Source of the DNA: a virus
Lineage: Duplodnaviria; Heunggongvirae; Uroviricota; Caudoviricetes
IMG/VR virus record: IMGVR_UViG_2585427765_000017
Direction: 5' to 3' (one strand)
DNA length: 36,151 nucleotides
Part shown: in pieces, positions 1,419 through 21,421 of the stretch
Position numbering within the stretch: position 1 is the stretch's first letter
Layout of the letters: each line of letters opens with the position of its first letter
Made by a program: the position numbers and the translations under genes
Notes under the pieces: generated by a model
What the model was told of the DNA's origin: nothing
Seen by the model: only the letters and a program-made list of their open reading frames with translations
Databases searched by the model: none

Positions 1419-3890
1419 TTAAAAATCAGCCTGATTCGGAATCAGTTTTTGCCAGATAGCTGAAACGTATTTTGCCTGGTAACGGGCGTCATCAAGTGCA
1501 TTATGGCGCTCACCTTCGAATGGAATAGCCGTTCTGGCATCGAAGTCTATGGCTTTCCCCAGCTCAACGATTGTGCGTACATCGCGATCGTTGTAGTAAC
1601 GCCACGGGCAGGGGATCCCCTGCCGTTCGTATGAACGGCGCAAAATCGTGTTGTCGAAGTTGGCTCCATTTCCCCAGACCTGAACAAAAAATTCACCGGA
1701 GTTTTCGTCGATAAATTCCCGCAATTGTAACAGTGCATCATCTAACGGGATTTCATCGGTCATAATGGCAGATTGCGCTTCGCGTGATTGCTTAAGCCAC
1801 CATTTAATGGTGTCCCGATCAATGACTCCGCCAGCAGTTTCCAGATCGATAGTCTTACTAAATTCCGGTCCCATATCTCCGGTTTGCGGATCGAAAAATA
1901 TTGCACCTATTGAGATAATCGGGGCATCAGGATTTTTTCCCATGGTTTCAAGGTCGATCATTAGATGGTCACACGTCCTACTGGCGGATGTGATTTCGTG
2001 ATGACCGTTCACCTTAATTGAGTGATCTGCCGTCTCGCCAGTTTCATTATCGCTATTGTGATGCTGATTGCCGCCAGTGTTCTTCTTGTTTGGATGTTCA
2101 GCGCCTTCCATTTCCTCCGGATCATCTTCCTGAACTTCAACCTGATACTCTTCATCGAATGTTTCCTGGTATGTTGCGTCGCCCATCACCGCGCCACAAT
2201 CAGGGCAGTTGCCGCCGCCGGTCTGACCGCAGGCGGTGCAGATCTTTTCCGGTTCCTGTTGCACTACTGGTTCAGGTTGTTTCGTTTCTTGCTCGTTTTG
2301 TAACGCATTTGGGCTGTTTTGTTCCGCTTTCTGGCCGTTCTGTTCCGTTTCTTGCTGGTTCTGGTTCACAGAATCGCGGGTTTCCATCCCCTTCACCCAT
2401 TTCGGATCATTCGGATCGCTAATTCCTACAACAAATTCACCACGTGATACTGCAAGCAGTTCATCGGCGTCAGGCTGGCTGATATTGGCTGCCTGCATAA
2501 TGTTGTTTACTTCGTCAGCGGTAACTTTTACCGGCCCTGGTTGTGCGGTCGTGTCAGATGCACCAGTATTTTGTTGTGAACCTGAGTATGTACTGTTTTT
2601 GCGGACGAAATATTCTTCTTTCGTGATTTCAGTAGCCCCGGCAGCCAGTGCCTTATCCAGACCAGAAAGTTTGTTTGCGCGACCGTATTTTTCACCATCC
2701 TTGTCGGTGAAGAGGAAGTAGAACGGCCCCTCACGCTCTACAGATGGTTCGACTTCCACTTTGCATTCGGTTTTTTCGTTGTCCGGAATTGCCGTTTCCA
2801 CTGCATCAGTTTCTGGTACTGGCGACGAGAGAGTATCAGTTGCGATCTGATTTGTTCCTTCATCTTCAAACACGCCCTTTGTAGTCAGGTATTCAGTAAT
2901 GTATTTGTTCAGTGCCACAGGGTCTTTGTGAATGTCGATCGGACGCTCACGGACAAGGCCAAAAATAGTCTGGCGGTCGTAGCGAAGGGCATCAGGCTGT
3001 TTGCGCATTGATGCTGAGATACGCTTCCAGTCTTCGCGGTCGTTGTTGATAACTTCATTTTTTGCCCAGCGATGGATGCTGCCGTCAATGTTTCCGGCAT
3101 CAATGTCACCAGGCCACAGAGCGTAGGCCAGTTCATCATCCAGTGTTTTCCATGTCTGCTTATATTCGCGACGAATGACTGCAGTGACAGGGGGGATATT
3201 TTCTGCTGAGTTTTCAGTGTGCTGTCGGTTGACTCTGGCGCGGGCGAGATCAACAGCAGACGTGTATTTTCCGGTTTCCTTGCGTTCACCTTCGCGACGT
3301 TTTTTCCAGATGCGCATCTCTGCCTGAATTTCGGGCCATTTAGCTCCAGGCTTACATTTATGCTTAACCCACCCGATGGCATGCAACTTAAGTTCTGGAT
3401 ACATGGCGTTAACTTCTGGCATTTTCATCAACGCTTCAACGATATGTCCGTCGAATGTTGCCATGTCTTCCTGCAACAGTTCCTGTGCACTAATCACCAT
3501 ATCAACGGTGATGTTTTCACATGTGTCGAACTTAACCATGACAGCGTTCTGTACTTCAGGGGCCAGCTTGTCAAAAGTGACGTTCATCGGATCTGATTCA
3601 GTCTCAACCGGGACAAAGGAAGCTGACTCCTCATCCCAGCGGTTTTCCTGCATATATTCAGCATCCCAAGAATCGAGGGCAGGGCGGGGTATACCGGGTT
3701 TATCCTCGCAAACAAGAAATTTATAAGCGCAGTCCTGAGCAGCCGGATATTGCTCCAGGAATTGCCAGGTAAATTTGGCACGGGCGCGGCGTTCGTCGCC
3801 AGCTTCAATGGCAGTGGCTACAGCGACTGCACCTTCTTCCTTTATTGCCTGTTCGTCCGGAATAGCGGCGCAAATAAAGACTTTACTCAT
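1419..3890 (-). CDS. Large putative exonuclease (823 aa) with C-terminal DnaQ-like DEDDh 3'-5' exonuclease domain and a central Cys4 zinc ribbon
   Basis: C-terminal motifs read in translation: LMIDLETMG (Exo I), VWGNGANFD (Exo II), HNALDDARY (Exo III); CTACGQ...CPDCG zinc ribbon mid-protein; occupies the exo/recombination position of the early-left operon. Confidence 0.65.
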   Translation of the reverse strand: MSKVFICAAIPDEQAIKEEGAVAVATAIEAGDERRARAKFTWQFLEQYPAAQDCAYKFLVCEDKPGIPRPALDSWDAEYMQENRWDEESASFVPVETESDPMNVTFDKLAPEVQNAVMVKFDTCENITVDMVISAQELLQEDMATFDGHIVEALMKMPEVNAMYPELKLHAIGWVKHKCKPGAKWPEIQAEMRIWKKRREGERKETGKYTSAVDLARARVNRQHTENSAENIPPVTAVIRREYKQTWKTLDDELAYALWPGDIDAGNIDGSIHRWAKNEVINNDREDWKRISASMRKQPDALRYDRQTIFGLVRERPIDIHKDPVALNKYITEYLTTKGVFEDEGTNQIATDTLSSPVPETDAVETAIPDNEKTECKVEVEPSVEREGPFYFLFTDKDGEKYGRANKLSGLDKALAAGATEITKEEYFVRKNSTYSGSQQNTGASDTTAQPGPVKVTADEVNNIMQAANISQPDADELLAVSRGEFVVGISDPNDPKWVKGMETRDSVNQNQQETEQNGQKAEQNSPNALQNEQETKQPEPVVQQEPEKICTACGQTGGGNCPDCGAVMGDATYQETFDEEYQVEVQEDDPEEMEGAEHPNKKNTGGNQHHNSDNETGETADHSIKVNGHHEITSASRTCDHLMIDLETMGKNPDAPIISIGAIFFDPQTGDMGPEFSKTIDLETAGGVIDRDTIKWWLKQSREAQSAIMTDEIPLDDALLQLREFIDENSGEFFVQVWGNGANFDNTILRRSYERQGIPCPWRYYNDRDVRTIVELGKAIDFDARTAIPFEGERHNALDDARYQAKYVSAIWQKLIPNQADF

Positions 3891-3969: not shown

Positions 3970-4173
3970 TTACGGCGCTGTTTTAAGTCCTGCCGGGATT
4001 TCGTTATTATCCATGTGAATAACTTTATCGACCGGATAGCAGTTACCGGGAATTTTTTGTTCTGCTGCGGCAGCTATGCATTCTTTCATTGAACCGTAAA
4101 TGTTAATAACCATGTCAACAGGCTCGCCAGTATTAAGAAAAACAGTCAGAGTGAGGGCAATAGCAGTATTCAT
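3970..4173 (-). CDS. ydfD: YdfD-like small membrane protein (internal Met start of the 85-aa track ORF)
   Basis: Translation MNTAIALTLTVFLNTGEPVD... has a hydrophobic N-terminus; start codon overlaps dicB stop (ATGA), as in the Qin dicB-ydfD arrangement. Homology from memory. Confidence 0.5.
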   Translation of the reverse strand: MNTAIALTLTVFLNTGEPVDMVINIYGSMKECIAAAAEQKIPGNCYPVDKVIHMDNNEIPAGLKTAP

Positions 4174-4358
4174 TGCCAGTATCCTTTTTGCATCGGGCGT
4201 AAACGGGCCAGCATTGAAAGAATGCATATTTTATTTAATAGCTCCCGTTCGTATTTTCTCTTATTAATGGCATCTTCAGTAAATACAGGGTTACTGATTC
4301 TGACACCAATTTCAAAACAACCTTCAGACGTATTGACGTTTGGTAATAACGTTTCCAT
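4170..4358 (-). CDS. dicB: Cell division inhibitor DicB (62 aa)
   Basis: Internal-Met product METLLPNVNTSEGCFEIGVRISNPVFTEDAINKRKYERELLNKICILSMLARLRPMQKGYWQ is near-identical in length and sequence to E. coli Qin DicB as I recall it; the track ORF 4170..4454 extends upstream of the true start. Confidence 0.8.
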   Translation of the reverse strand: METLLPNVNTSEGCFEIGVRISNPVFTEDAINKRKYERELLNKICILSMLARLRPMQKGYWQ

Positions 4359-4540
4359 TATCGCGTCCTCAACAATGAATTTTGTGATGCGGCGCCTGGT
4401 GCCTCCAGGTGACGTTAACCAGTTAACAATTAACGCCGGATACAGAGAACCCACCCATAAGAACCAATACGGAAGTCAACTGGTCTTTTTAACTGTTCCG
4501 CGTGCGCTGAGCCGCATTCACCGCATCACAAAATTCACTT

Positions 4541-4605
4541 TAAAAAGGGCGGGTATCACAAGGGAAAACAAAAAACGGATACCCGCCAAAAGGTAATCAG
4601 CATGG
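4541..4605 (-). ncRNA. dicF: DicF-like small RNA candidate ending in an intrinsic terminator (approximate coordinates)
   Basis: Minus-strand reads ...CAUGCUGAUUACCUUUUGGCGGGUAUCCG...GUGAUACCCGCCCUUUUUAAAGUG: GGCGGGUAUC/GAUACCCGCC stem followed by a U-run, directly upstream of dicB where dicF lies in Qin. Resemblance to DicF (UUUGGCGGUAUC...GCCGCCC) is from memory. Confidence 0.4.
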
Positions 4606-4927
4606 GTTGTTGCAGCGGAGTTGTCACTTAAGCGTATGGTCAACCTGACAACCCGGTGCTCCACAGGGGAGGGAGAATAGTCCCCCTGCCATACTTACCG
4701 CCGCGCCATTTCGCGGATTGCCACAACCGGAAGCGTACGGTCGAATTAAATTTAACGACAAGCCTCATAGGTGAAGGCCTTCGCCGTACGCTTTCGTGTT
4801 ATGCCCTGACTTTTCAGGGATATATCCTTTCAGTAAACTGTCAGTGCCGGATGCTCACCCGTGTCCGGCGCACGCACTCCACCTCACCCGTGGAGAACTC
4901 CTTAATTACCAACCCTCAGGAGGGTGA

Positions 4928-5161
4928 ATGTTAAAATCAACTCTTATTGCTAAATGCCTTTATCAAAATCGCATGGTAAGCAGCATTTCAATAGGCGAGT
5001 CTGCAGTTAAAAGTATTTTCGAAGAGTACTTTTCCGGGCATGATTTTAATAAATGGAATACTAAATTACCGCCAGCAGTTTCAACGCGTATTCTGAAAGC
5101 AACTGAAAGAGCAAGTACAATTCGCGTTAACTATTTCATTAAAGATTTGTGGGATCTTTGA
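4928..5161 (+). CDS. Hypothetical 77-aa protein, opposite in orientation to the surrounding leftward operon
   Basis: Strong RBS (CTCAGGAGGGTGA) directly before the ATG; AT-rich coding; 3' end overlaps the convergent 135-aa gene by about 23 nt. No family recognised. Confidence 0.35.
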   Translation: MLKSTLIAKCLYQNRMVSSISIGESAVKSIFEEYFSGHDFNKWNTKLPPAVSTRILKATERASTIRVNYFIKDLWDL

Positions 5162-5546
5162 TATCCACAGAGCCTAAAGTATGTGCATATGGATGTGCTA
5201 TTGTGCGCCCCTGTAAATTTGCATCGTTTTCTAAATCTTTTGATTTCAACAGAACATCAGCAAGACTCTGAATCATGCAGAGATAATCAAAAGCAGTTGC
5301 CGTTTCTGTTCTGATTGCTGAAATAACATGACCATTCAGGCAAACAGAAATTACCCGTTCATCAATATCGTTTTCCTGTTTTTGATTATCAGAACCATAT
5401 AGCCCTGAAAAAGCATTGCGCACATTACGAACCATATTATCGATGGTTTCTTTTTTGGTGTATGCCGGGTCAATTTTCACCAGACTATCACCGAGTGTCG
5501 TTGCAGCAATTATCTGGATTTCTTTTGGTAAATCTTTAAATTCCAT
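5139..5546 (-). CDS. Hypothetical 135-aa protein between ydfC-like gene and the DicF-like region
   Basis: Clean ORF with ATG start in the leftward early operon; no recognisable motif; absent from the Qin dicB operon as I remember it. Confidence 0.45.
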   Translation of the reverse strand: MEFKDLPKEIQIIAATTLGDSLVKIDPAYTKKETIDNMVRNVRNAFSGLYGSDNQKQENDIDERVISVCLNGHVISAIRTETATAFDYLCMIQSLADVLLKSKDLENDANLQGRTIAHPYAHTLGSVDIKDPTNL

Positions 5547-5568
5547 TATTAGCCTCGTTGGTTAGCCA

Positions 5569-5787
5569 TTAACGTGGGTATGTAATCATTCTGGCAATGC
5601 TTAATGCCGCTGCTTTTTCCAGATTGGTGATATCCTGCTCCAGAGCGGACAGATTTTCAGCTTGCTTAGCCCTGGCTTCATTGGCCCATTTCAGGTCCTG
5701 CGCAGCCTTAATTTTCTGGTGCATCCACTCATAAAGTTCATCATCGGTATAGTCTGGCGCGATGATGACGGGTTCTCGTTTCTGCAT
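5569..5787 (-). CDS. ydfC: YdfC-like protein (72 aa)
   Basis: 72-aa coiled-coil-like ORF (MQKREPVIIAPDYTDDELYEW...) with GAGGAA RBS, in the ydfA-ydfB-ydfC synteny of the Qin dicB operon. Confidence 0.55.
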   Translation of the reverse strand: MQKREPVIIAPDYTDDELYEWMHQKIKAAQDLKWANEARAKQAENLSALEQDITNLEKAAALSIARMITYPR

Positions 5788-5816
5788 ACTGATTCCTCGC
5801 GGTGCTGCTTCGCTTA

Positions 5817-5945
5817 TCAGCCGTTAGATTTTGCCGAGCTGGAAAGCGCCTGTATAAACTCACTGAAGCTGAGAGCTTCTTCGCCTTTGGCAAGGCCTTC
5901 GAAGTATTCTTCGTAAGCCTTTTCCATGATTGTGTCGAAATCCAT
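5817..5945 (-). CDS. ydfB: YdfB-like small protein (42 aa; below track threshold, hand-translated)
   Basis: Minus-strand ORF translating to MDFDTIMEKAYEEYFEGLAKGEEALSFSEFIQALSSSAKSNG; sits between ydfA-like stop and ydfC-like start with 1-nt spacing to the ydfA stop. Confidence 0.45.
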   Translation of the reverse strand: MDFDTIMEKAYEEYFEGLAKGEEALSFSEFIQALSSSAKSNG

Positions 5946-5946
5946 A

Positions 5947-6102
5947 TCACTCACCTGAGTTTCTTTCCAGCCAGCGACGGGCACCATTTTCGGTTTTAAA
6001 CGTTTTGCTTTTGGTATACGTCATCGCGGTGAACGTACCGTCCTGGTTGGGGAACACGCCACATACCAGAGATTCGTTGTTGCCAAGATCGATAGTATCC
6101 AT
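5947..6102 (-). CDS. ydfA: YdfA-like protein (51 aa, internal Met of the 78-aa track ORF)
   Basis: MDTIDLGNNESLVCGVFPNQDGTFTAMTYTKSKTFKTENGARRWLERNSGE matches my recollection of Qin YdfA; GAGGT RBS upstream; first gene downstream of the leftward promoter. Confidence 0.7.
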   Translation of the reverse strand: MDTIDLGNNESLVCGVFPNQDGTFTAMTYTKSKTFKTENGARRWLERNSGE

Positions 6103-6283
6103 GTTGACCTCATTTCCCCTTAACGCCGGGGTAGCGGAACAAAAACCTGCTGCATAGTTATTAAAGTTGAACCCTGCCGTCATGTTCTTACGCCTCGGGC
6201 TGGCTACTTAACCCCTGACCACTGCCTGGTAACTCGAGGTATTGCCCTGTATTGTGTGGGACGGGATGGGTTGGTATGGGAAA

Positions 6284-6350
6284 ACTATAGGAAATGCCTA
6301 ATTACTTGTCAATAGGCTATGCCTAATAATTTGGGCGCAACCTAATAGGT
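6284..6350 (-). promoter_or_regulatory. Leftward early promoter/operator region (PL/OL-like)
   Basis: Minus strand carries TTGACA (about 6307-6312), 17-bp spacer, TATAGT (about 6284-6289). Overlaps the 17-bp operator ATTAGGCATAGCCTATT (inverted, 6311-6327) plus extra GCCTAAT/CCTAATAGG half-sites at about 6296-6302 and 6341-6349. Confidence 0.5.
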
Positions 6351-6420: not shown

Positions 6421-6897
6421 TTAAGTTCCTGTCTTGGTGATGTTCTGGCTTTTCCGTTTTGATTCTTGATTTTTCAGATAGTTAGCTACCTTCATTTCCA
6501 TTGCGGCAATGTAGGCGCGAACGTCATGATCAACCCAACTAGGCTCCGTAGCATTTCCAGATAAGATGAAAGCCACAATTGCTCTTTTTTCATCAGAGGC
6601 GGCTTGATAAAGGCTGTTTATGTCTAAAAGTTCACTTTTTGTATCTGAAGTGGATGGGGTTGGTATGGGGTATTCGTTAAGCCCCCAATGCTCTGGACCA
6701 ACCACATCAGAAAAGAAACGCCATAGTTCTGGAAGTTTGTCTTTACTTATCGAACCTTTCTTAATCCAGTCATGGATTGATGGTGGTTGGACTTTGAAAT
6801 GACGTGCGATTTCCGCCTTTGATTTGACGGCTCCTGATGCAATTTTTTTGTTAATGGCCTGCTCTATCGCTCGGCCTAAGTCTTTACCACTAAGCAT
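6421..6897 (-). CDS. Prophage CI-like repressor (HTH), no recognisable LexA/S24 autocleavage domain
   Basis: N-terminal HTH region (GKDLGRAIEQAINKKIASGAVKSKAEIARHFKVQPPSIHDWIKKG) resembles the phage CI-repressor HTH family; divergent from the cro-like gene; flanked by matching operator repeats. No Ala-Gly/Ser...Lys S24 signature seen in the 158-aa product. Confidence 0.75.
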   Translation of the reverse strand: MLSGKDLGRAIEQAINKKIASGAVKSKAEIARHFKVQPPSIHDWIKKGSISKDKLPELWRFFSDVVGPEHWGLNEYPIPTPSTSDTKSELLDINSLYQAASDEKRAIVAFILSGNATEPSWVDHDVRAYIAAMEMKVANYLKNQESKRKSQNITKTGT

Positions 6898-6944
6898 TGC
6901 TTAATAGTCTCCTATGCGCATCGCGTTAGGCAATCCCTACTCTC

Positions 6945-10545: not shown

Positions 10546-10566
10546 TGCTCTAACTGTTAGAGCTAA
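10546..10566. terminator. Hairpin between convergent genes (possible bidirectional terminator)
   Basis: Perfect inverted repeat GCTCTAAC-tg-TTAGAGC sits between the stop of the Q-like gene and the stop of the minus-strand membrane-protein gene. Confidence 0.35.
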
Positions 10567-11783
10567 ATAAAAATCTTCGCAAGAAATATTCCTGCTGCAA
10601 TAGAACTTGGTAGCCAAGCCAAATACATAAATAACTTTATTGTATTATCACATTTGGTTTGGCTCTTTGATAGTTCATATAGAGCCTCATTAATGTCCTT
10701 CTTAAGGTCTTCTGGATAATTTTCATTGTTTTTTAGAAAAGGCATAAATGCTATATCTTTAGCATGGTAAATATGTTTTAATTGTTTATCCTGATTGAGT
10801 AATACCATATATAAAATAAGTGAGCTTAACAATACACCTAATAAAACGAGTAACATTTCAGATCTTGATGTTAGTTTTATAATCCCGAAGGATGCCAGTA
10901 AAGACACAGGGATTGATAATACTTTTGTCGTCAAATCAGTAATAAGTTTTGAGATTTTTTCAGCAAACTCTGCTTCAGACTTCGCAATTTCTTTTCGTGC
11001 CTTATGGAATGAAAAACCACTCATATACGTGGATAAATTATTTTCAAATAGCTTTACAAATTTATCCCAATGGCAAATTAGGTTTTCAAAATCATATTTG
11101 TTATCGAGAATAAACTCCACTATGGTATTCCTGAAAATACCTGTTTTTTCTGCTTGATGGGGGATTTGGGCGTTTTTTACATCTAAAAGACTCTTGATGA
11201 TAGCATCATCAATGTCATTTATATTGAGCATCTTAGGTGTAATGCACGTTTCTAAAATAATAGATGTTGATTTTGCGTCAGAATCTTTCACGAAAACTAA
11301 ACGATAATTTGAAGATTCCGATTTTGTATCGTGAAAGTGCGCAATCTCAGCCAGGGAAGAAATAATTGCACAAATTTTCTCGATTTTTATAATTTCGTCC
11401 GGTTTACTTGAATCAGACGGATGAAAATCCTCATCGATTATGTAATACTCTTTAGGAATTACACCTTTCTTGAGTGAGTTTATACAAAGGAACTCTTGAA
11501 TTGAGTTATAGAAACGTTCTGCTCCATTTTTAGGGGATATGTAAGTGTATGAGAATTTATCTCCAATTTTAATTGGGTGTGATTTTAAATCGTCTTCGTC
11601 AATGAACTCATTATTAATATCAACATCTTCAAAATAACCGTAGGCTTTATGTGAATTTACTAACAAGTTTACCAAACGTTGATTGTTATTATTTATTTCA
11701 ACAGTTGCAGAAAAAGAACGTCCGTCGAATTGGGGCTTCGATGATGCTCTATAAAAATCTACAACCGTTGATAAATTAGCCAT
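10563..11783 (-). CDS. Protein with about 280-aa soluble N-terminal region and three predicted C-terminal transmembrane helices; second gene of AT-rich operon
   Basis: Hydrophobic segments VLSIPVSLLASFGIIKL, MLLVLLGVLLSSLILYMVLL and IKLFMYLAWLPSSIAAGIFLAKIFI near the C-terminus. ATG (MANLSTVV) overlaps the upstream gene stop as ATGGCTAA; the track GTG start at 11795 is less likely. K/N/I/D-rich composition. Confidence 0.7.
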   Translation of the reverse strand: MANLSTVVDFYRASSKPQFDGRSFSATVEINNNNQRLVNLLVNSHKAYGYFEDVDINNEFIDEDDLKSHPIKIGDKFSYTYISPKNGAERFYNSIQEFLCINSLKKGVIPKEYYIIDEDFHPSDSSKPDEIIKIEKICAIISSLAEIAHFHDTKSESSNYRLVFVKDSDAKSTSIILETCITPKMLNINDIDDAIIKSLLDVKNAQIPHQAEKTGIFRNTIVEFILDNKYDFENLICHWDKFVKLFENNLSTYMSGFSFHKARKEIAKSEAEFAEKISKLITDLTTKVLSIPVSLLASFGIIKLTSRSEMLLVLLGVLLSSLILYMVLLNQDKQLKHIYHAKDIAFMPFLKNNENYPEDLKKDINEALYELSKSQTKCDNTIKLFMYLAWLPSSIAAGIFLAKIFI

Positions 11784-12918
11784 TTTCTTTTCCACTATCC
11801 CTTATTTTTAAATTTTCTTTTACCACAGCGCTTAGTTTAGCCTTAAATTCAGCTGGTAAGTTTGTAAATGATAATCTTCCAGTTGTTTCATCGTACCACA
11901 CATCATCATCAGCTGTCACTCCAAGGAGAGACTTGTCAAAATTAAATCCAATCTCATCAGTCTTAAAGGTGATGTTTTTAATGTCTTTCAACGCCCGTTT
12001 ACTGATAACAAATTCAGTTGGAATTCTCACATTTTCACTATTTAAAAAAAGAATTAATTCGTGAGTGTAAGATTCTTTGGTAGACTCATCTAAATTTGTC
12101 ATGTGACGTGCTGCAATTACTTCAATATCACTCAATCGGGCTGACAAATTTTTAGCTGCTTGTGTGTCTAAATATGCAATAACGTCATGTTTAAATCTAT
12201 TGGCACATGCTTTAAGTTCTGGTTTTTGGTTAAAAAATTGTTTTGCGACAGTTGGTAGTTTTTTTGTGGCTTTTGCTGCTGCAAGTGATTTGTCGCATCC
12301 TATTGCTGCAATAAAATATGCTGATGTGGATTGACCCACTCCTTTACTTACGAAACTTAGATAACTTAAGTCAATTTTTTCAGACTCATCAGCAGTTTTA
12401 TATTGTTGGTAGAGATTGAAATTTATTCTTGCTGCTTGGTGTATTTTGGATAGATCCAAATGGATCATTTCTTCAGGTTCGAGTTTGTTGCTGATAGTAA
12501 CACCATTTTTCTTTTTAATCATTGCAATTAAAAAGAATTTATTGTTATTTACAATATAGTCACAAAACACAATAAAACCACCAGATGACCAAGGTTCTTC
12601 TTTGGCTTTTTTTACAAGTTGCTTCATCACTTCAATAGAAAAAGGCACAAACTTTTCATTAATGTTATCCTCTGACTGAGAATACTCTTCAAATATTGAT
12701 GGCACAGGCCCTTGTTCTGTTTTTTCCTCTTTAAAAACGCCATAATGTGCAGAATTGCCTTTGGTTCCATATAAAGATGAAATGTCTTGAATAAGTTTTA
12801 TAACAATTGGATTGGTTTTATCGAGAGGAGTGGATCTAAGCTGATACGGCTTAGAAAAATCAAAATCCTTTTTTGCTTCTTTAATTAGTTCATGAACGAT
12901 AACTTGCTTAATTTCCAT
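11776..12918 (-). CDS. NdpA/YejK-like (NA37 nucleoid-associated protein family) homologue; first gene of AT-rich operon
   Basis: VIVHELIKEAK near the N-terminus, GGFIVFCDY and YLSFVSKGVGQSTSAYFIAAIG motifs parallel YejK IALHQLIK, GGFVLFCHY, YLTFLKGRVGRKVADFF as I recall them; AGGTGA RBS 8 nt upstream of ATG. Needs HMM confirmation. Confidence 0.65.
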   Translation of the reverse strand: MEIKQVIVHELIKEAKKDFDFSKPYQLRSTPLDKTNPIVIKLIQDISSLYGTKGNSAHYGVFKEEKTEQGPVPSIFEEYSQSEDNINEKFVPFSIEVMKQLVKKAKEEPWSSGGFIVFCDYIVNNNKFFLIAMIKKKNGVTISNKLEPEEMIHLDLSKIHQAARINFNLYQQYKTADESEKIDLSYLSFVSKGVGQSTSAYFIAAIGCDKSLAAAKATKKLPTVAKQFFNQKPELKACANRFKHDVIAYLDTQAAKNLSARLSDIEVIAARHMTNLDESTKESYTHELILFLNSENVRIPTEFVISKRALKDIKNITFKTDEIGFNFDKSLLGVTADDDVWYDETTGRLSFTNLPAEFKAKLSAVVKENLKIRDSGKENG

Positions 12919-13192
12919 ATTGAAAATATCACCTATGTTATTGTTAGATCGTTTGTGATTTTTTTACCATCACAACAACGACACAAAATCATTAATGCGT
13001 ACGCAAAAATTTTGAATAATGAGTTAATCAATGTCAATAGTTAAACACACTACCGCTGTAGAGTTGTTGTCATTAAATTGCGTCATAAGTAGAATTGCTG
13101 CGGGTGCTTGAGGCTATCTGTCTCAGGCATGAACACCAAAAGGCAGATAGATAAAAGCCCCACCCGACTATAAATCGAAGTGAGGCCCCTAT

Positions 13193-13405
13193 ATGCTCGT
13201 CACATATAGATTGCCTCTTACGGACCGAAAGGTCAAGGAGAAGCAGGCTATGAAGCAGCAAAAGGCGATGTTAATCGCCCTGATCGTCATCTGTTTAACC
13301 GTCATAGTGACGGCACTGGTAACGAGGAAAGACCTCTGCGAGGTACGAATCCGAACCGGCCAGACGGAGGTTGCTGTTTTCGTAGACTACGAATCTAGAG
13401 AGTAA
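13193..13405 (+). CDS. mok: Mok-like overlapping reading frame of the hok locus
   Basis: 70-aa frame that starts upstream of, and terminates with, the hok coding sequence, as in hok/mok/sok loci. Confidence 0.5.
   Translation: MLVTYRLPLTDRKVKEKQAMKQQKAMLIALIVICLTVIVTALVTRKDLCEVRIRTGQTEVAVFVDYESRE
13250..13405 (+). CDS. hok: Hok/Gef-family type I toxin (51 aa)
   Basis: MKQQKAMLIALIVICLTVIVTALVTRKDLCEVRIRTGQTEVAVFVDYESRE is a near-exact Hok-family toxin sequence (HokD/RelF-like from memory). Confidence 0.85.
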   Translation: MKQQKAMLIALIVICLTVIVTALVTRKDLCEVRIRTGQTEVAVFVDYESRE

Positions 13406-16489: not shown

Positions 16490-17539
16490 ATGATTAATAC
16501 TGTAAAAATATCCAGTTGTGAGTTAATCAACGCTGATTGCCTGGAGTTTATCCAGACCTTACCGGAAAACTCTGTCGATCTGATAGTCACAGACCCGCCA
16601 TATTTTAAAGTGAAGCCCGAGGGCTGGGATAACCAGTGGGAGGGCGACGATGATTACCTGAAATGGCTGGACCAGTGTCTGGCGCAGTTCTGGCGGGTAC
16701 TGAAGCCTGCCGGAAGTCTTTACCTGTTCTGTGGTCATCGCCTGGCATCTGACACCGAAATCATGATGCGTGAGCGCTTTAATGTGCTGAACCACATTAT
16801 CTGGGCGAAGCCGTCCGGACGCTGGAACGGGTGCAATAAGGAAAGTCTGCGGGCGTATTTTCCGGCAACAGAGCGCATTCTGTTTGCAGAACATTATCAG
16901 GGACCGTATCGCCCGAAAGATGATGGCTATGTGGAGCAGGGGCGCGAGCTAAAACAGCACGTCATGGCCCCGCTGATTTCTTACTTTCGTGATGCGCGTA
17001 AATCACTGGGAATAACGTCAAAACAGATAGCGGAAGCCACCGGAAAGAAAAACATGGCTTCGCACTGGTTTGGTGCCAGTCAGTGGCAGTTACCGAACGA
17101 GGGTGATTACAATAAATTGCAGGCGTTGTTTGCGCGTGTTGCGGCAGAAAAACATCAGCGCGGGGAACTGGAAAAGCCACACCACCAGCTGGTCAGCACA
17201 TACAGTGAGCTGAACCGGCAGTATACGGAACTGCTGAGTGAATATAAAAATTTGCGGCGGTATTTCGGTGTGACGGCGCAGGTTCCGTACACCGATGTCT
17301 GGACGCATAAACCGGTGCAGTACTATCCAGGGAAACATCCGTGCGAAAAACCGGCAGAAATGCTGCAGCAGATAATCAACGCGAGCAGTCGTCCGGGAGA
17401 CCTGGTTGCAGATTTTTTTATGGGTTCAGGTTCAACGGTAAAAGCGGCGATGGCACTGGGGCGTTGTGCGATTGGTGTTGAGCTGGAGACCGGACGTTTT
17501 GAACAGACAGTCAGGGAAGTTCAGGATTTAATCGTTTGA
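16490..17539 (+). CDS. DNA methyltransferase (N6-adenine/N4-cytosine class, DPPY motif), apparently orphan
   Basis: Motif IV DPPY near the N-terminus (LIVTDPPYF) and motif I FxGxG near the C-terminus (DFFMGSGST). No restriction endonuclease gene identifiable adjacent. Confidence 0.85.
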   Translation: MINTVKISSCELINADCLEFIQTLPENSVDLIVTDPPYFKVKPEGWDNQWEGDDDYLKWLDQCLAQFWRVLKPAGSLYLFCGHRLASDTEIMMRERFNVLNHIIWAKPSGRWNGCNKESLRAYFPATERILFAEHYQGPYRPKDDGYVEQGRELKQHVMAPLISYFRDARKSLGITSKQIAEATGKKNMASHWFGASQWQLPNEGDYNKLQALFARVAAEKHQRGELEKPHHQLVSTYSELNRQYTELLSEYKNLRRYFGVTAQVPYTDVWTHKPVQYYPGKHPCEKPAEMLQQIINASSRPGDLVADFFMGSGSTVKAAMALGRCAIGVELETGRFEQTVREVQDLIV

Positions 17540-17588: not shown

Positions 17589-17664
17589 GGCCCTTTAGCT
17601 CAGTGGTGAGAGCGAGCGACTCATAATCGCCAGGTCGCTGGTTCAAATCCAGCAAGGGCCACCA
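17589..17664 (+). tRNA. ileZ: tRNA-Ile (anticodon CAU, lysidine type; ileX/ileZ-like)
   Basis: GGCCCTTTAGCTCAGTGG...ACTCATAATCG...GGTTCAAATCCAGCAAGGGCCACCA: acceptor GGCCCTT/AAGGGCC, anticodon loop CUCAUAA, encoded CCA; close to E. coli ileX as recalled. Confidence 0.8.
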
Positions 17665-17671
17665 TCACATA

Positions 17672-17748
17672 CCGCCATTAGCTCATCAGGATAGAGCGCC
17701 AGCCTTCGAAGCTGGTTGCGCGGGGTTCGAGTCCTCGATGGCGGTCCA
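17672..17748 (+). tRNA. argN: tRNA-Arg (anticodon UCG)
   Basis: Cloverleaf folded by hand: acceptor CCGCCAT/ATGGCGG, anticodon stem CCAGC/GCTGG with loop CTTCGAA, T-loop TTCGAGT, encoded CCA. C1-G72 start is unusual. Confidence 0.7.
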
Positions 17749-17761
17749 TTATCTGTACCCT

Positions 17762-17838
17762 GCGTTGTTAGCTCAGCCGGACAGAGCAATTGCCTTCTAA
17801 GCAATCGGTCACTGGTTCGAATCCAGTACAACGCGCCA
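17762..17838 (+). tRNA. argO: tRNA-Arg (anticodon UCU)
   Basis: Acceptor GCGTTGT/ACAACGC, anticodon stem ATTGC/GCAAT with loop CTTCTAA, T-loop TTCGAAT, encoded CCA. Confidence 0.8.
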
Positions 17839-20950: not shown

Positions 20951-21421
20951 ATGTCAGAAAAATCTGTTGCGCCCGGAAGAGGGAGAAAGCCGAAGCCGAC
21001 TACCCGTAAGGAACTGGCAGGCAATCCCGGCAAGCGGGCATTAAATAAGTTTGAACCAAAATTCACGCCGATCACCCATGCTGAGCCTCCCGAGTGGTTT
21101 GATGAAACCGCTCGTCATATGTGGGACACCATTATTCGTGAGCTCTGTGCCCAGCGAGTTCTTTATGTTACTGATTTGCACAACGTCGTTGCATTCTGCA
21201 CTGCTTTTCGCAACTGGCATGAGTCGCAGCAGGAGGTTATGCGCGTTGGGATTACGGTAGAGAGTGAGGCGGGGCCAAAGAAAAACCCGGCACTCACGGC
21301 GGCAAATGAGGCCGCCAGACAAATGGTGACATTCGGTAGTTTATTAGGACTCGATCCTGCCAGTCGGCAGCGGCTTATCACGCCGAAGCAGGGGAGCGAT
21401 AATCCATTTAAAAACCTATGA
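20951..21421 (+). CDS. terS: Terminase small subunit (P27-family-like)
   Basis: 156-aa basic protein directly upstream of and overlapping the large terminase gene; N-terminal [21 protein letters not shown] typical of P27-type TerS. Confidence 0.7.

Follow-up and report, generated by a model that had tools for sequence, protein, structure and literature searches.

A candidate terminator-derived small RNA of the DicF/KilS kind at the dicF position of a prophage dicB operon

Introduction

DicF is among the few prophage small RNAs (sRNAs) with proven effects on host cell division, metabolism, and the virulence of enterohemorrhagic Escherichia coli (EHEC). In this report, we describe a candidate sRNA that occupies the position of dicF in the dicB operon of a lambdoid prophage. 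The DNA analyzed is the IMG/VR virus record IMGVR_UViG_2585427765_000017 (Caudoviricetes; 36,151 nucleotides (nt)), and this whole stretch is referred to as the window. The operon lies at positions 3970-6183 on the minus strand. An initial annotation, made from the sequence, had described it as a Qin-like dicB operon that is transcribed leftward from a PL-like promoter and includes a diverged DicF-like sRNA. We will examine the genes of the operon, the structure of the RNA element, and its relationship to DicF and to the E. coli K-12 sRNA KilS, followed by the functions that the element may have.

The dicB operon

The gene coordinates were taken from the Prokaryotic Genome Annotation Pipeline (PGAP) annotation of E. 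coli E203449, in which a 2.5-kb stretch is 100% identical to the window, and were mapped onto the window. Protein identities are given relative to the counterparts in the Qin prophage of K-12. Over the identical stretch PGAP annotates racR, a DUF1391 gene, ydfB, ydfC, two hypothetical genes, dicB, a DUF1482 gene, and an exonuclease gene. Open reading frames (ORFs), Pfam and NCBIfam matches, the PGAP annotation, and the comparison with K-12 agree that ydfA, ydfB, ydfC, dicB, and a ydfD-like gene stand in the Qin order, all on the minus strand, as the initial annotation had stated.

The first gene, ydfA (DUF1391; 5947-6102, with an ORF that could start as far out as 6183), encodes 51 amino acids (aa) and is supported by PGAP, by a Pfam DUF1391 match (8.6e-29), and by 50/51 identities to K-12 YdfA. 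It is followed by ydfB (5817-5945; 42 aa, 40/42 identities to K-12 YdfB), which is named ydfB by PGAP and matches phrog_2061, and by ydfC (5569-5787; 72 aa, 70/72 identities to K-12 YdfC), which matches phrog_1744. The cell-division inhibitor gene dicB (4170-4358; 62 aa) matches Pfam DicB (3.1e-37) and NCBIfam CellDivInhibDicB (130 bits, cut-off 100), and its product has 54/62 identities to K-12 DicB. The ydfD-like gene (DUF1482; 3970-4173) overlaps the dicB stop codon; its 67-aa product has 43 identities to the 63-aa K-12 YdfD, and the gene is annotated by PGAP and matches Pfam DUF1482 (9.8e-19).

Two extra genes, both absent from K-12 Qin, lie between ydfC and the leader of the RNA element. 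One encodes 135 aa on the minus strand (5139-5546; phrog_1363, 3.5e-42; a PGAP hypothetical) and the other encodes 77 aa on the plus strand (4928-5161; phrog_10348, 2.7e-46; also annotated by PGAP in E203449). The two are convergent, and the 77-aa gene overlaps the end of the 135-aa gene. No match to this pair was found in Pfam, NCBIfam, or PADLOC searches. As such the dicB operon is nothing unusual: parts of the 2.5-kb region have matches in 4767 genomes out of a set of 5426 complete E. coli genomes.

The RNA element at the dicF position

The alignment with K-12 Qin and the annotations place the candidate sRNA (4542-4612, minus strand) between ydfC and dicB, inside a conserved leader. It was recognized from its fold, the conservation of its stem, and a core that replaces DicF between conserved flanks. 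The 5' tail, CAACAACCCAUGCUGAUUACCUUUU (4612-4588), is unpaired in the predicted fold and is followed by a hairpin (4587-4548) with a perfect 10-bp stem, GGCGGGUAUC/GAUACCCGCC, and a 20-nt U-rich loop. In the stem, GGCGGGTATC (4587-4578) pairs with GATACCCGCC (4557-4548). A U-run (a T-run in the DNA; 4546-4542) lies on the 3' side of the hairpin, and the two together form a terminator at the candidate 3' end. The DicF-like layout that had been noticed upstream of dicB is thus present at the exact dicF position.

The predicted fold energy is -18.5 kcal/mol. None of 200 shuffled sequences was as stable (z = -3.6 for 72 nt and -6.2 for 56 nt), and in the 16 distinct variants of the window type, designated S2 below, pairing of the stem holds in 100% of cells and one U-A/C-G pair is compensatory. 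The hairpin is a real feature and not a product of chance. When the spacer between ydfC and dicB is aligned with that of K-12 Qin, both non-coding flanks are ~95% identical and a 56-nt core (4608-4553) is replaced; as far as the alignment can tell, the change is a clean cassette replacement and not scattered mutation.

The non-coding leader upstream of the element (4613-4916, minus strand) is ~95% identical to K-12 Qin, is highly conserved over 73 distinct S2-type loci, and is homologous to the K-12 region that gives the 190-nt DicF precursor. The equivalent of the K-12 RNase III site would lie at ~4733. At position 4736 on the minus strand, near this site equivalent, the window has A in the leader segment CCGUGCGCUUCCGG, compared with G in K-12 and most loci. 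A sequence resembling an RNase E site, UGA|UUA, is present within the element, and a cut there would leave a 55-nt form (4596-4542).

Downstream of the element lies a conserved dicB 5' leader (4359-4541, minus strand), which was delimited by alignment with K-12 Qin and with the phage pPE4 and by direct reading of the Rac sequence. The block CCGGCGUUAAUUGUUAACUGGUUAACGUCACCUGGAGGCACCAGGC in this leader stands ahead of three different genes, namely dicB in Qin, kilR in Rac, and kil in phage pPE4; corresponding stretches are L287:3750-3900 (minus strand) and L286:3600-3740, the latter in the pPE4 record. Part of the leader (4381-4535, minus strand) resembles Rfam STnc100 at a score below threshold (29.1 bits with a gathering score of 47, E 2e-4). 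It looks like a conserved structured leader that is common to different division-inhibitor genes.

Comparison with DicF

The initial annotation had regarded the RNA as a diverged relative of DicF and had named a search with the Rfam DicF covariance model as a check. This check went against it. No match to Rfam DicF (RF00039) was found in the whole window at the gathering score (48 bits), nor even at E≤10 on 4300-5000 (701 nt) or 4525-4640 (116 nt), and K-12 DicF, used as the positive control, scored 76.7 bits against the same gathering score. A relationship to DicF is nevertheless apparent in a gapped alignment, in which 43 of 67 columns are identical, mostly in the hairpin arms and the U-run. 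The RNA is, by its alignment, related to DicF and yet outside the curated DicF family; it is as distant from DicF as KilS is.

DicF and the window RNA have the same genomic position between ydfC and dicB, a flanking leader that is ~95% identical, a UUUGGCGG(G)UAUC 5' arm, a CCGCCCUUUUU 3' end, and the same overall layout. They differ in the stem, which in the window has 10 perfectly paired positions closed by a 20-nt loop and in DicF is interrupted, and in the predicted stability of the hairpin (-18.5 kcal/mol in the window and -15.9 kcal/mol in DicF). They also differ in the regions used for target recognition. The 5' end of DicF pairs with xylR and its loop/3' region pairs with the ribosome-binding site of ftsZ (PMC5069750). 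The xylR-pairing 5' seed, UUUCUGGUGACG, is absent from the window RNA and CCAUGCUGAUUACCUUUU stands in its place, and the DicF loop motif ACUCCG, which is complementary to ftsZ CGGAG, is changed to UUUCCC. Because both target-pairing regions of DicF have been replaced or changed, an RNA released from the window would most likely act on other targets. The earlier suggestion that the targets may differ from those of DicF is reasonable in this respect, and the targets themselves were not found in the searches described below.

A cassette with interchangeable parts

A survey was made of ~240 loci with conserved flanks from IMG/VR and the GTDB species representatives, and the cores were tabulated. 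The 5' modules of these cores are S1 (the DicF seed), S2 (the window type), S2b, and S3, and the hairpin interiors are H1, H2, H3, H3b, and H3c together with a short form in Escherichia albertii. The combinations observed are S1+H1 (DicF), S1+H3b, S2+H2, S2+H3, S2b+H3, and S3+H3c. Every allele folds as a 10-13-bp terminator ahead of a U-run. The GGCGG...CCGCC hairpin base, the U-run, and the conserved downstream leader are common to all alleles, and the 5' tail and hairpin interior vary. The S2 tail is nearly invariant whether it is fused to H2 or H3; the window copy has a rare C where most S2 copies have U. We refer to the group as the DicF/KilS cassette, a grouping defined in this analysis. 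The window, which carries S2+H2, fits this definition: it has the GGCGG...CCGCCCUUUUU hairpin, and AAAGUGAAUUUUGUGAUG and the conserved leader that belongs to a gene for a division inhibitor come after it.

The S3+H3c combination is identical to KilS, an annotated K-12 sRNA upstream of kilR in the Rac prophage. A study by Bar et al. (2021) predicted KilS (b4833) from Hfq RIL-seq and verified it by northern blot (PMC8175672). A non-DicF allele at the same site does therefore yield a real Hfq-associated sRNA. KilS and the window RNA have in common the GGCGG...CCGCCCUUUUU terminator, an identical downstream block, AAAGUGAAUUUUGUGAUGCGGUGAAUGCGG, and the same leader before a division-inhibitor gene. 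Both Rac and the window operon have a RacR repressor, and the S2+H2 type at times precedes kil instead of dicB. They differ in their 5' parts, which are unrelated (GACAUUGCUGUGUGUAGUCCU in KilS and CCAUGCUGAUUACCUUUU in the window), in their hairpin interiors (H3c and H2), and in an inner leader of ~115 nt that is present in the window and missing from KilS; 42 of 63 aligned columns are identical. The window RNA is not KilS, as only the terminator base and the U-run are common to it and the 98-nt K-12 KilS. DicF, KilS, and the window RNA are about equidistant, with 42-43 identities over 63-67 columns, and the window RNA is better described as a putative third allele of the DicF/KilS cassette than as a copy of DicF.

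The neighbors of the cassette vary across the surveyed loci. Either DicA or RacR serves as the repressor, and either dicB with ydfD or kil lies downstream. Among the S2+H2 loci with enough sequence, dicB is downstream in 48 and kil in six. The 135-aa gene recurs upstream of many cassettes, of the DicF type and the S2 type alike. The complete phage genome deposited as PP818812 has a DicA-type repressor and two tandem S2+H2 copies (L286, ~3400-3590) upstream of kil. This record is listed as Actinobacillus phage vB_Apl-pPE4, a surprising host given that the neighboring genes and the cassette match lambdoid prophages of E. coli.

Two further contexts were observed. In some loci (L039:4732-4920, minus strand; L229:3236-3424, plus strand) an S2b+H3 or KilS-like cassette is followed by IsrK and the C4 antisense RNA (Rfam matches of 60-77 bits in these two loci) and not by the dicB leader, which places the cassette in P1/Gifsy-like immunity contexts as well. 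In E. albertii NBRC 107761 (L220, ~6860-6935) a short allele keeps the DicF 5' seed UUUCUGGUGA with a minimal and different hairpin, GGCGGAAACGGAUAUCCGCC; it gives no Rfam DicF match at the gathering score.

A database search found no description of the S2+H2 RNA in Rfam 15. A literature search found neither the variant sequence strings nor a description of alternative alleles at the dicF site, with the study by Faubladier and Bouché (1994), the likeliest to treat dicF-like sequences, outside its coverage. RefSeq has no annotation under the variant, which is uninformative since canonical DicF is also without a feature in the RefSeq records listed.

The frequency of the alleles was counted in the same 5426 complete E. 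coli genomes. The DicF core is found in 3954 genomes, the window core (S2+H2) in 132, and any S2 tail in about 206. The KilS query matches 1485 genomes, at a different set of places from the matches of the window core. Among the strains with the window core are O55:H7, O121:H19, and enterotoxigenic E. coli (ETEC) strains; E203449, ATCC 43886, O55:H7 CB9615, and ETEC B7A are examples of carriers. The sequence is near-identical over the 132 genomes and dozens of IMG/VR contigs.

Promoter, repressor, and prophage context

A site resembling a sigma-70 promoter of the PL type, TTGACA-17-TATAGT, lies upstream of the operon at 6312..6284 on the minus strand. It has 11/12 consensus matches, in agreement with the leftward transcription proposed in the initial annotation, and by direct reading of the sequence it stands amid repeated ATTAGGC motifs. 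We infer that it is the operator-controlled promoter of the operon. The gene for a RacR-type immunity repressor is found further upstream on the same strand (6421-6897); it matches the NCBIfam equivalog TransRepsrRacR with 246.3 bits (cut-off 200) and is annotated as racR by PGAP in E203449. The repressor that adjoins the operon is thus a RacR equivalog and not DicA, and the immunity module is RacR/YdaS/YdaT and not DicA/DicC.

The description of the operon as Qin-like holds for the genes and their order, with 65-98% protein identity to the Qin dicB operon (ydfABC-dicF-dicB-ydfDE). It does not hold for the Rac-type immunity module, for the two extra genes after ydfC, or for the 823-aa exonuclease gene that comes after the operon in place of ydfE. 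The operon is a mosaic of a RacR-type repressor, a PL-like promoter, and a Qin-type dicB operon. In the explanation favored here, the prophage is a lambdoid one of E. coli and the operon is its early-left operon. The window spans the integrase through the tail genes, so that this prophage, unlike the cryptic Qin prophage, looks complete within the window.

Other features of the prophage were observed outside the operon. A sok antisense RNA (13102-13252, plus strand; Rfam 109.2 bits) implies a hok/sok-type toxin-antitoxin locus. Three consecutive tRNA genes (17589-17835, plus strand) come after a DNA methylase gene (16490-17539), and the late region starts beyond them. At 10563-12918 a gene pair on the minus strand is reversed within the rightward early region; it encodes a 410-aa protein with no Pfam match and a 380-aa protein of the NA37 nucleoid-associated family (2e-51), and the pair may be a moron or a defense-type insertion.

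Searches for targets

Pairing of the window RNA was screened against 45 K-12 translation-initiation regions, including that of ftsZ. Plain duplex energies were dominated by unrealistically long hybrids, and an accessibility-weighted version failed its positive control, as DicF-ftsZ ranked 16 of 45. In this unreliable screen the hybrid of the window RNA with ftsZ had -6.7 kcal/mol and ftsZ ranked 35 of 45, from which no conclusion is drawn. A sensitive blastn search (E≤10) for long antisense partners elsewhere in E. coli genomes gave only the locus and its relatives, and exact complements of the S2 tail in IMG/VR were only chance matches in unrelated environmental contigs.

Several candidate interactions were rejected. 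A site within the prophage at 21073-21093 (minus strand), antisense to the terminase small-subunit gene, was set aside because by our own estimate ~1.2 such matches are expected by chance. A role as a sponge for GcvB through the CA-rich CAACAAC/CACAACAC was rejected since shuffled sequences did at least as well in a fraction of 0.10-0.33. A long-range RNase III stem enclosing the RNA was also rejected, as folding the window and the K-12 sequence singly gives conflicting structures and the K-12 fold is not significant (z = -0.65).

The AgvB/AsxR anti-sRNAs of EHEC lambdoid prophages were described by Tree et al. (2014), and the 5' part in this family mimics the target site of a core sRNA (GcvB R1, FnrS) (PMC4104026). 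They follow the same evolutionary logic as the cassette described here: a family of short sRNAs occupies one fixed prophage site, and its members keep the 3' part while their 5' recognition parts have been exchanged. They differ in being located 3' of PR' (the moron site) and in having no sequence similarity to the window RNA. The window RNA does not belong to the anti-sRNA family, given its other site and a GcvB R1 pairing that is no better than that of shuffles.

Proposed function and alternative explanations

By analogy with DicF and KilS, we consider it probable that the element specifies a terminator-derived Hfq-binding sRNA, a third allele of the DicF/KilS cassette in a Qin-type operon, that acts in trans on targets other than those of DicF. 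In such a scheme, loss of RacR repression would lead to a polycistronic transcript of the operon, and part of the transcription would end at the hairpin. RNase III and RNase E would then trim the leader to give an RNA of ~55-70 nt, and perhaps also a form of ~190 nt. This processing of the DicF precursor has been demonstrated for K-12 only (PMC10448788); the leader with the K-12 processing sites is conserved in the window. The contacts with Hfq would be made by the U-tail and by the U-rich (UUUU) stretch just 5' of the stem, and transcripts that read through the hairpin would allow for the expression of DicB and YdfD.

A broader proposal, which we put forward tentatively, is that in lambdoid early-left operons the site just upstream of the FtsZ-inhibitor gene (dicB or kil) holds a swappable sRNA cassette. 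A common processing leader and terminator scaffold would take up interchangeable 5' seeds and hairpin interiors through recombination, DicF and KilS would be alleles of one locus, and S2 would be a third major allele with host or phage targets of its own.

Several points weigh against a trans-acting sRNA. The S2 tail and hairpin make up a candidate whose expression and Hfq binding are argued by analogy with DicF and KilS. The screen of the 45 K-12 regions, with its failed positive control, found no target, and the best match within the prophage was a perfect 10-bp match (the site at 21073-21093), which is at chance level. The S2 tail is no more invariant than its flanks, as the whole leader is highly conserved, and this may reflect recent spread and not selection on a seed. 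In a fold of 321 nt the S2 tail pairs with a segment of the upstream leader, and in this model the tail might serve the structure of the precursor and not target recognition.

The main rival, which we regard as rather unlikely, is that the hairpin works solely in cis, as an intrinsic terminator (a tL-like attenuator) that limits transcription into the toxic dicB and ydfD, and that the released RNA has no trans role. This explanation fits the strong hairpin and U-run directly upstream of a toxic gene, and it is in keeping with the findings that every cassette type precedes a division inhibitor, that nothing else in the region varies as much as the hairpin loop, that conservation of the S2 tail is about matched by that of the leader as a whole, and that no target was found. 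However, both of the characterized alleles are Hfq-associated, with base-pairing targets proven for DicF and a northern-verified transcript for KilS. An attenuator also leaves unexplained why discrete, internally conserved 5' modules have recombined with different hairpins and why the whole unit is duplicated in tandem in a phage.

It is improbable that the RNA is a functional DicF orthologue that still represses ftsZ or division through another pairing register. The same locus, the same partner dicB, and a hairpin related to that of DicF (43/67 columns) fit such an orthologue, and by inspection pairing is conceivable between the GUUUU kept in the loop and a GAAAC that lies just before the start codon of ftsZ. 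However, the replacement of ACUCCG by UUUCCC, the weak ftsZ hybrid (from the unreliable screen), and the lack of an Rfam DicF match argue otherwise.

A very improbable explanation is translation-coupled attenuation, in which an AUG in the 5' tail opens a 15-codon leader peptide, MLITFWRVSVFCFPL (4603-4556, minus strand), and the passage of ribosomes through the hairpin controls read-through into dicB. All S2 loci have the AUG, a frame of 14-15 codons ending at a UGA in the 3' arm is retained in 54 of 56 S2+H2 loci, the loop length is nearly always 20 or 17 nt, and the C/U polymorphism of the window is synonymous (CUG and UUG). However, the AUG is not preceded by a Shine-Dalgarno sequence, the product in the S2+H3 combination would have 26 aa and extend past the terminator, and S2b shifts the frame. 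The UGA is an automatic consequence of AUCA in the 5' arm, and the U-rich loop accounts for the richness in Phe and Leu.

Finally, the view that the element is a decayed, non-functional dicF remnant can be accounted hardly credible, since the failure of the DicF covariance model and the absence of the DicF seed are set against a hairpin that is intact and more stable than that of DicF, a clean cassette swap with no random disruptive stem mutations found among the 16 distinct variants, near-identity over all of the genomes and contigs counted above, and duplication of the cassette in a phage record.

Implications

The dicB operon and RNAs of the DicF and KilS kind are known, and what is new here is the S2-type sRNA candidate and the suggestion that a single modular locus has both dicF and kilS among its alleles. 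A target that is common to all S2 alleles and pairs with CCAUGUUGAUU/UACCUUU would be the prime candidate. If the cassette is polymorphic as proposed, strains that are called DicF-less by Rfam annotation, including O55:H7, O121:H19, and several ETEC strains, may carry another regulator at this site that is co-expressed with DicB on derepression. The locus would then be a natural experiment in how phages re-target a conserved sRNA scaffold.

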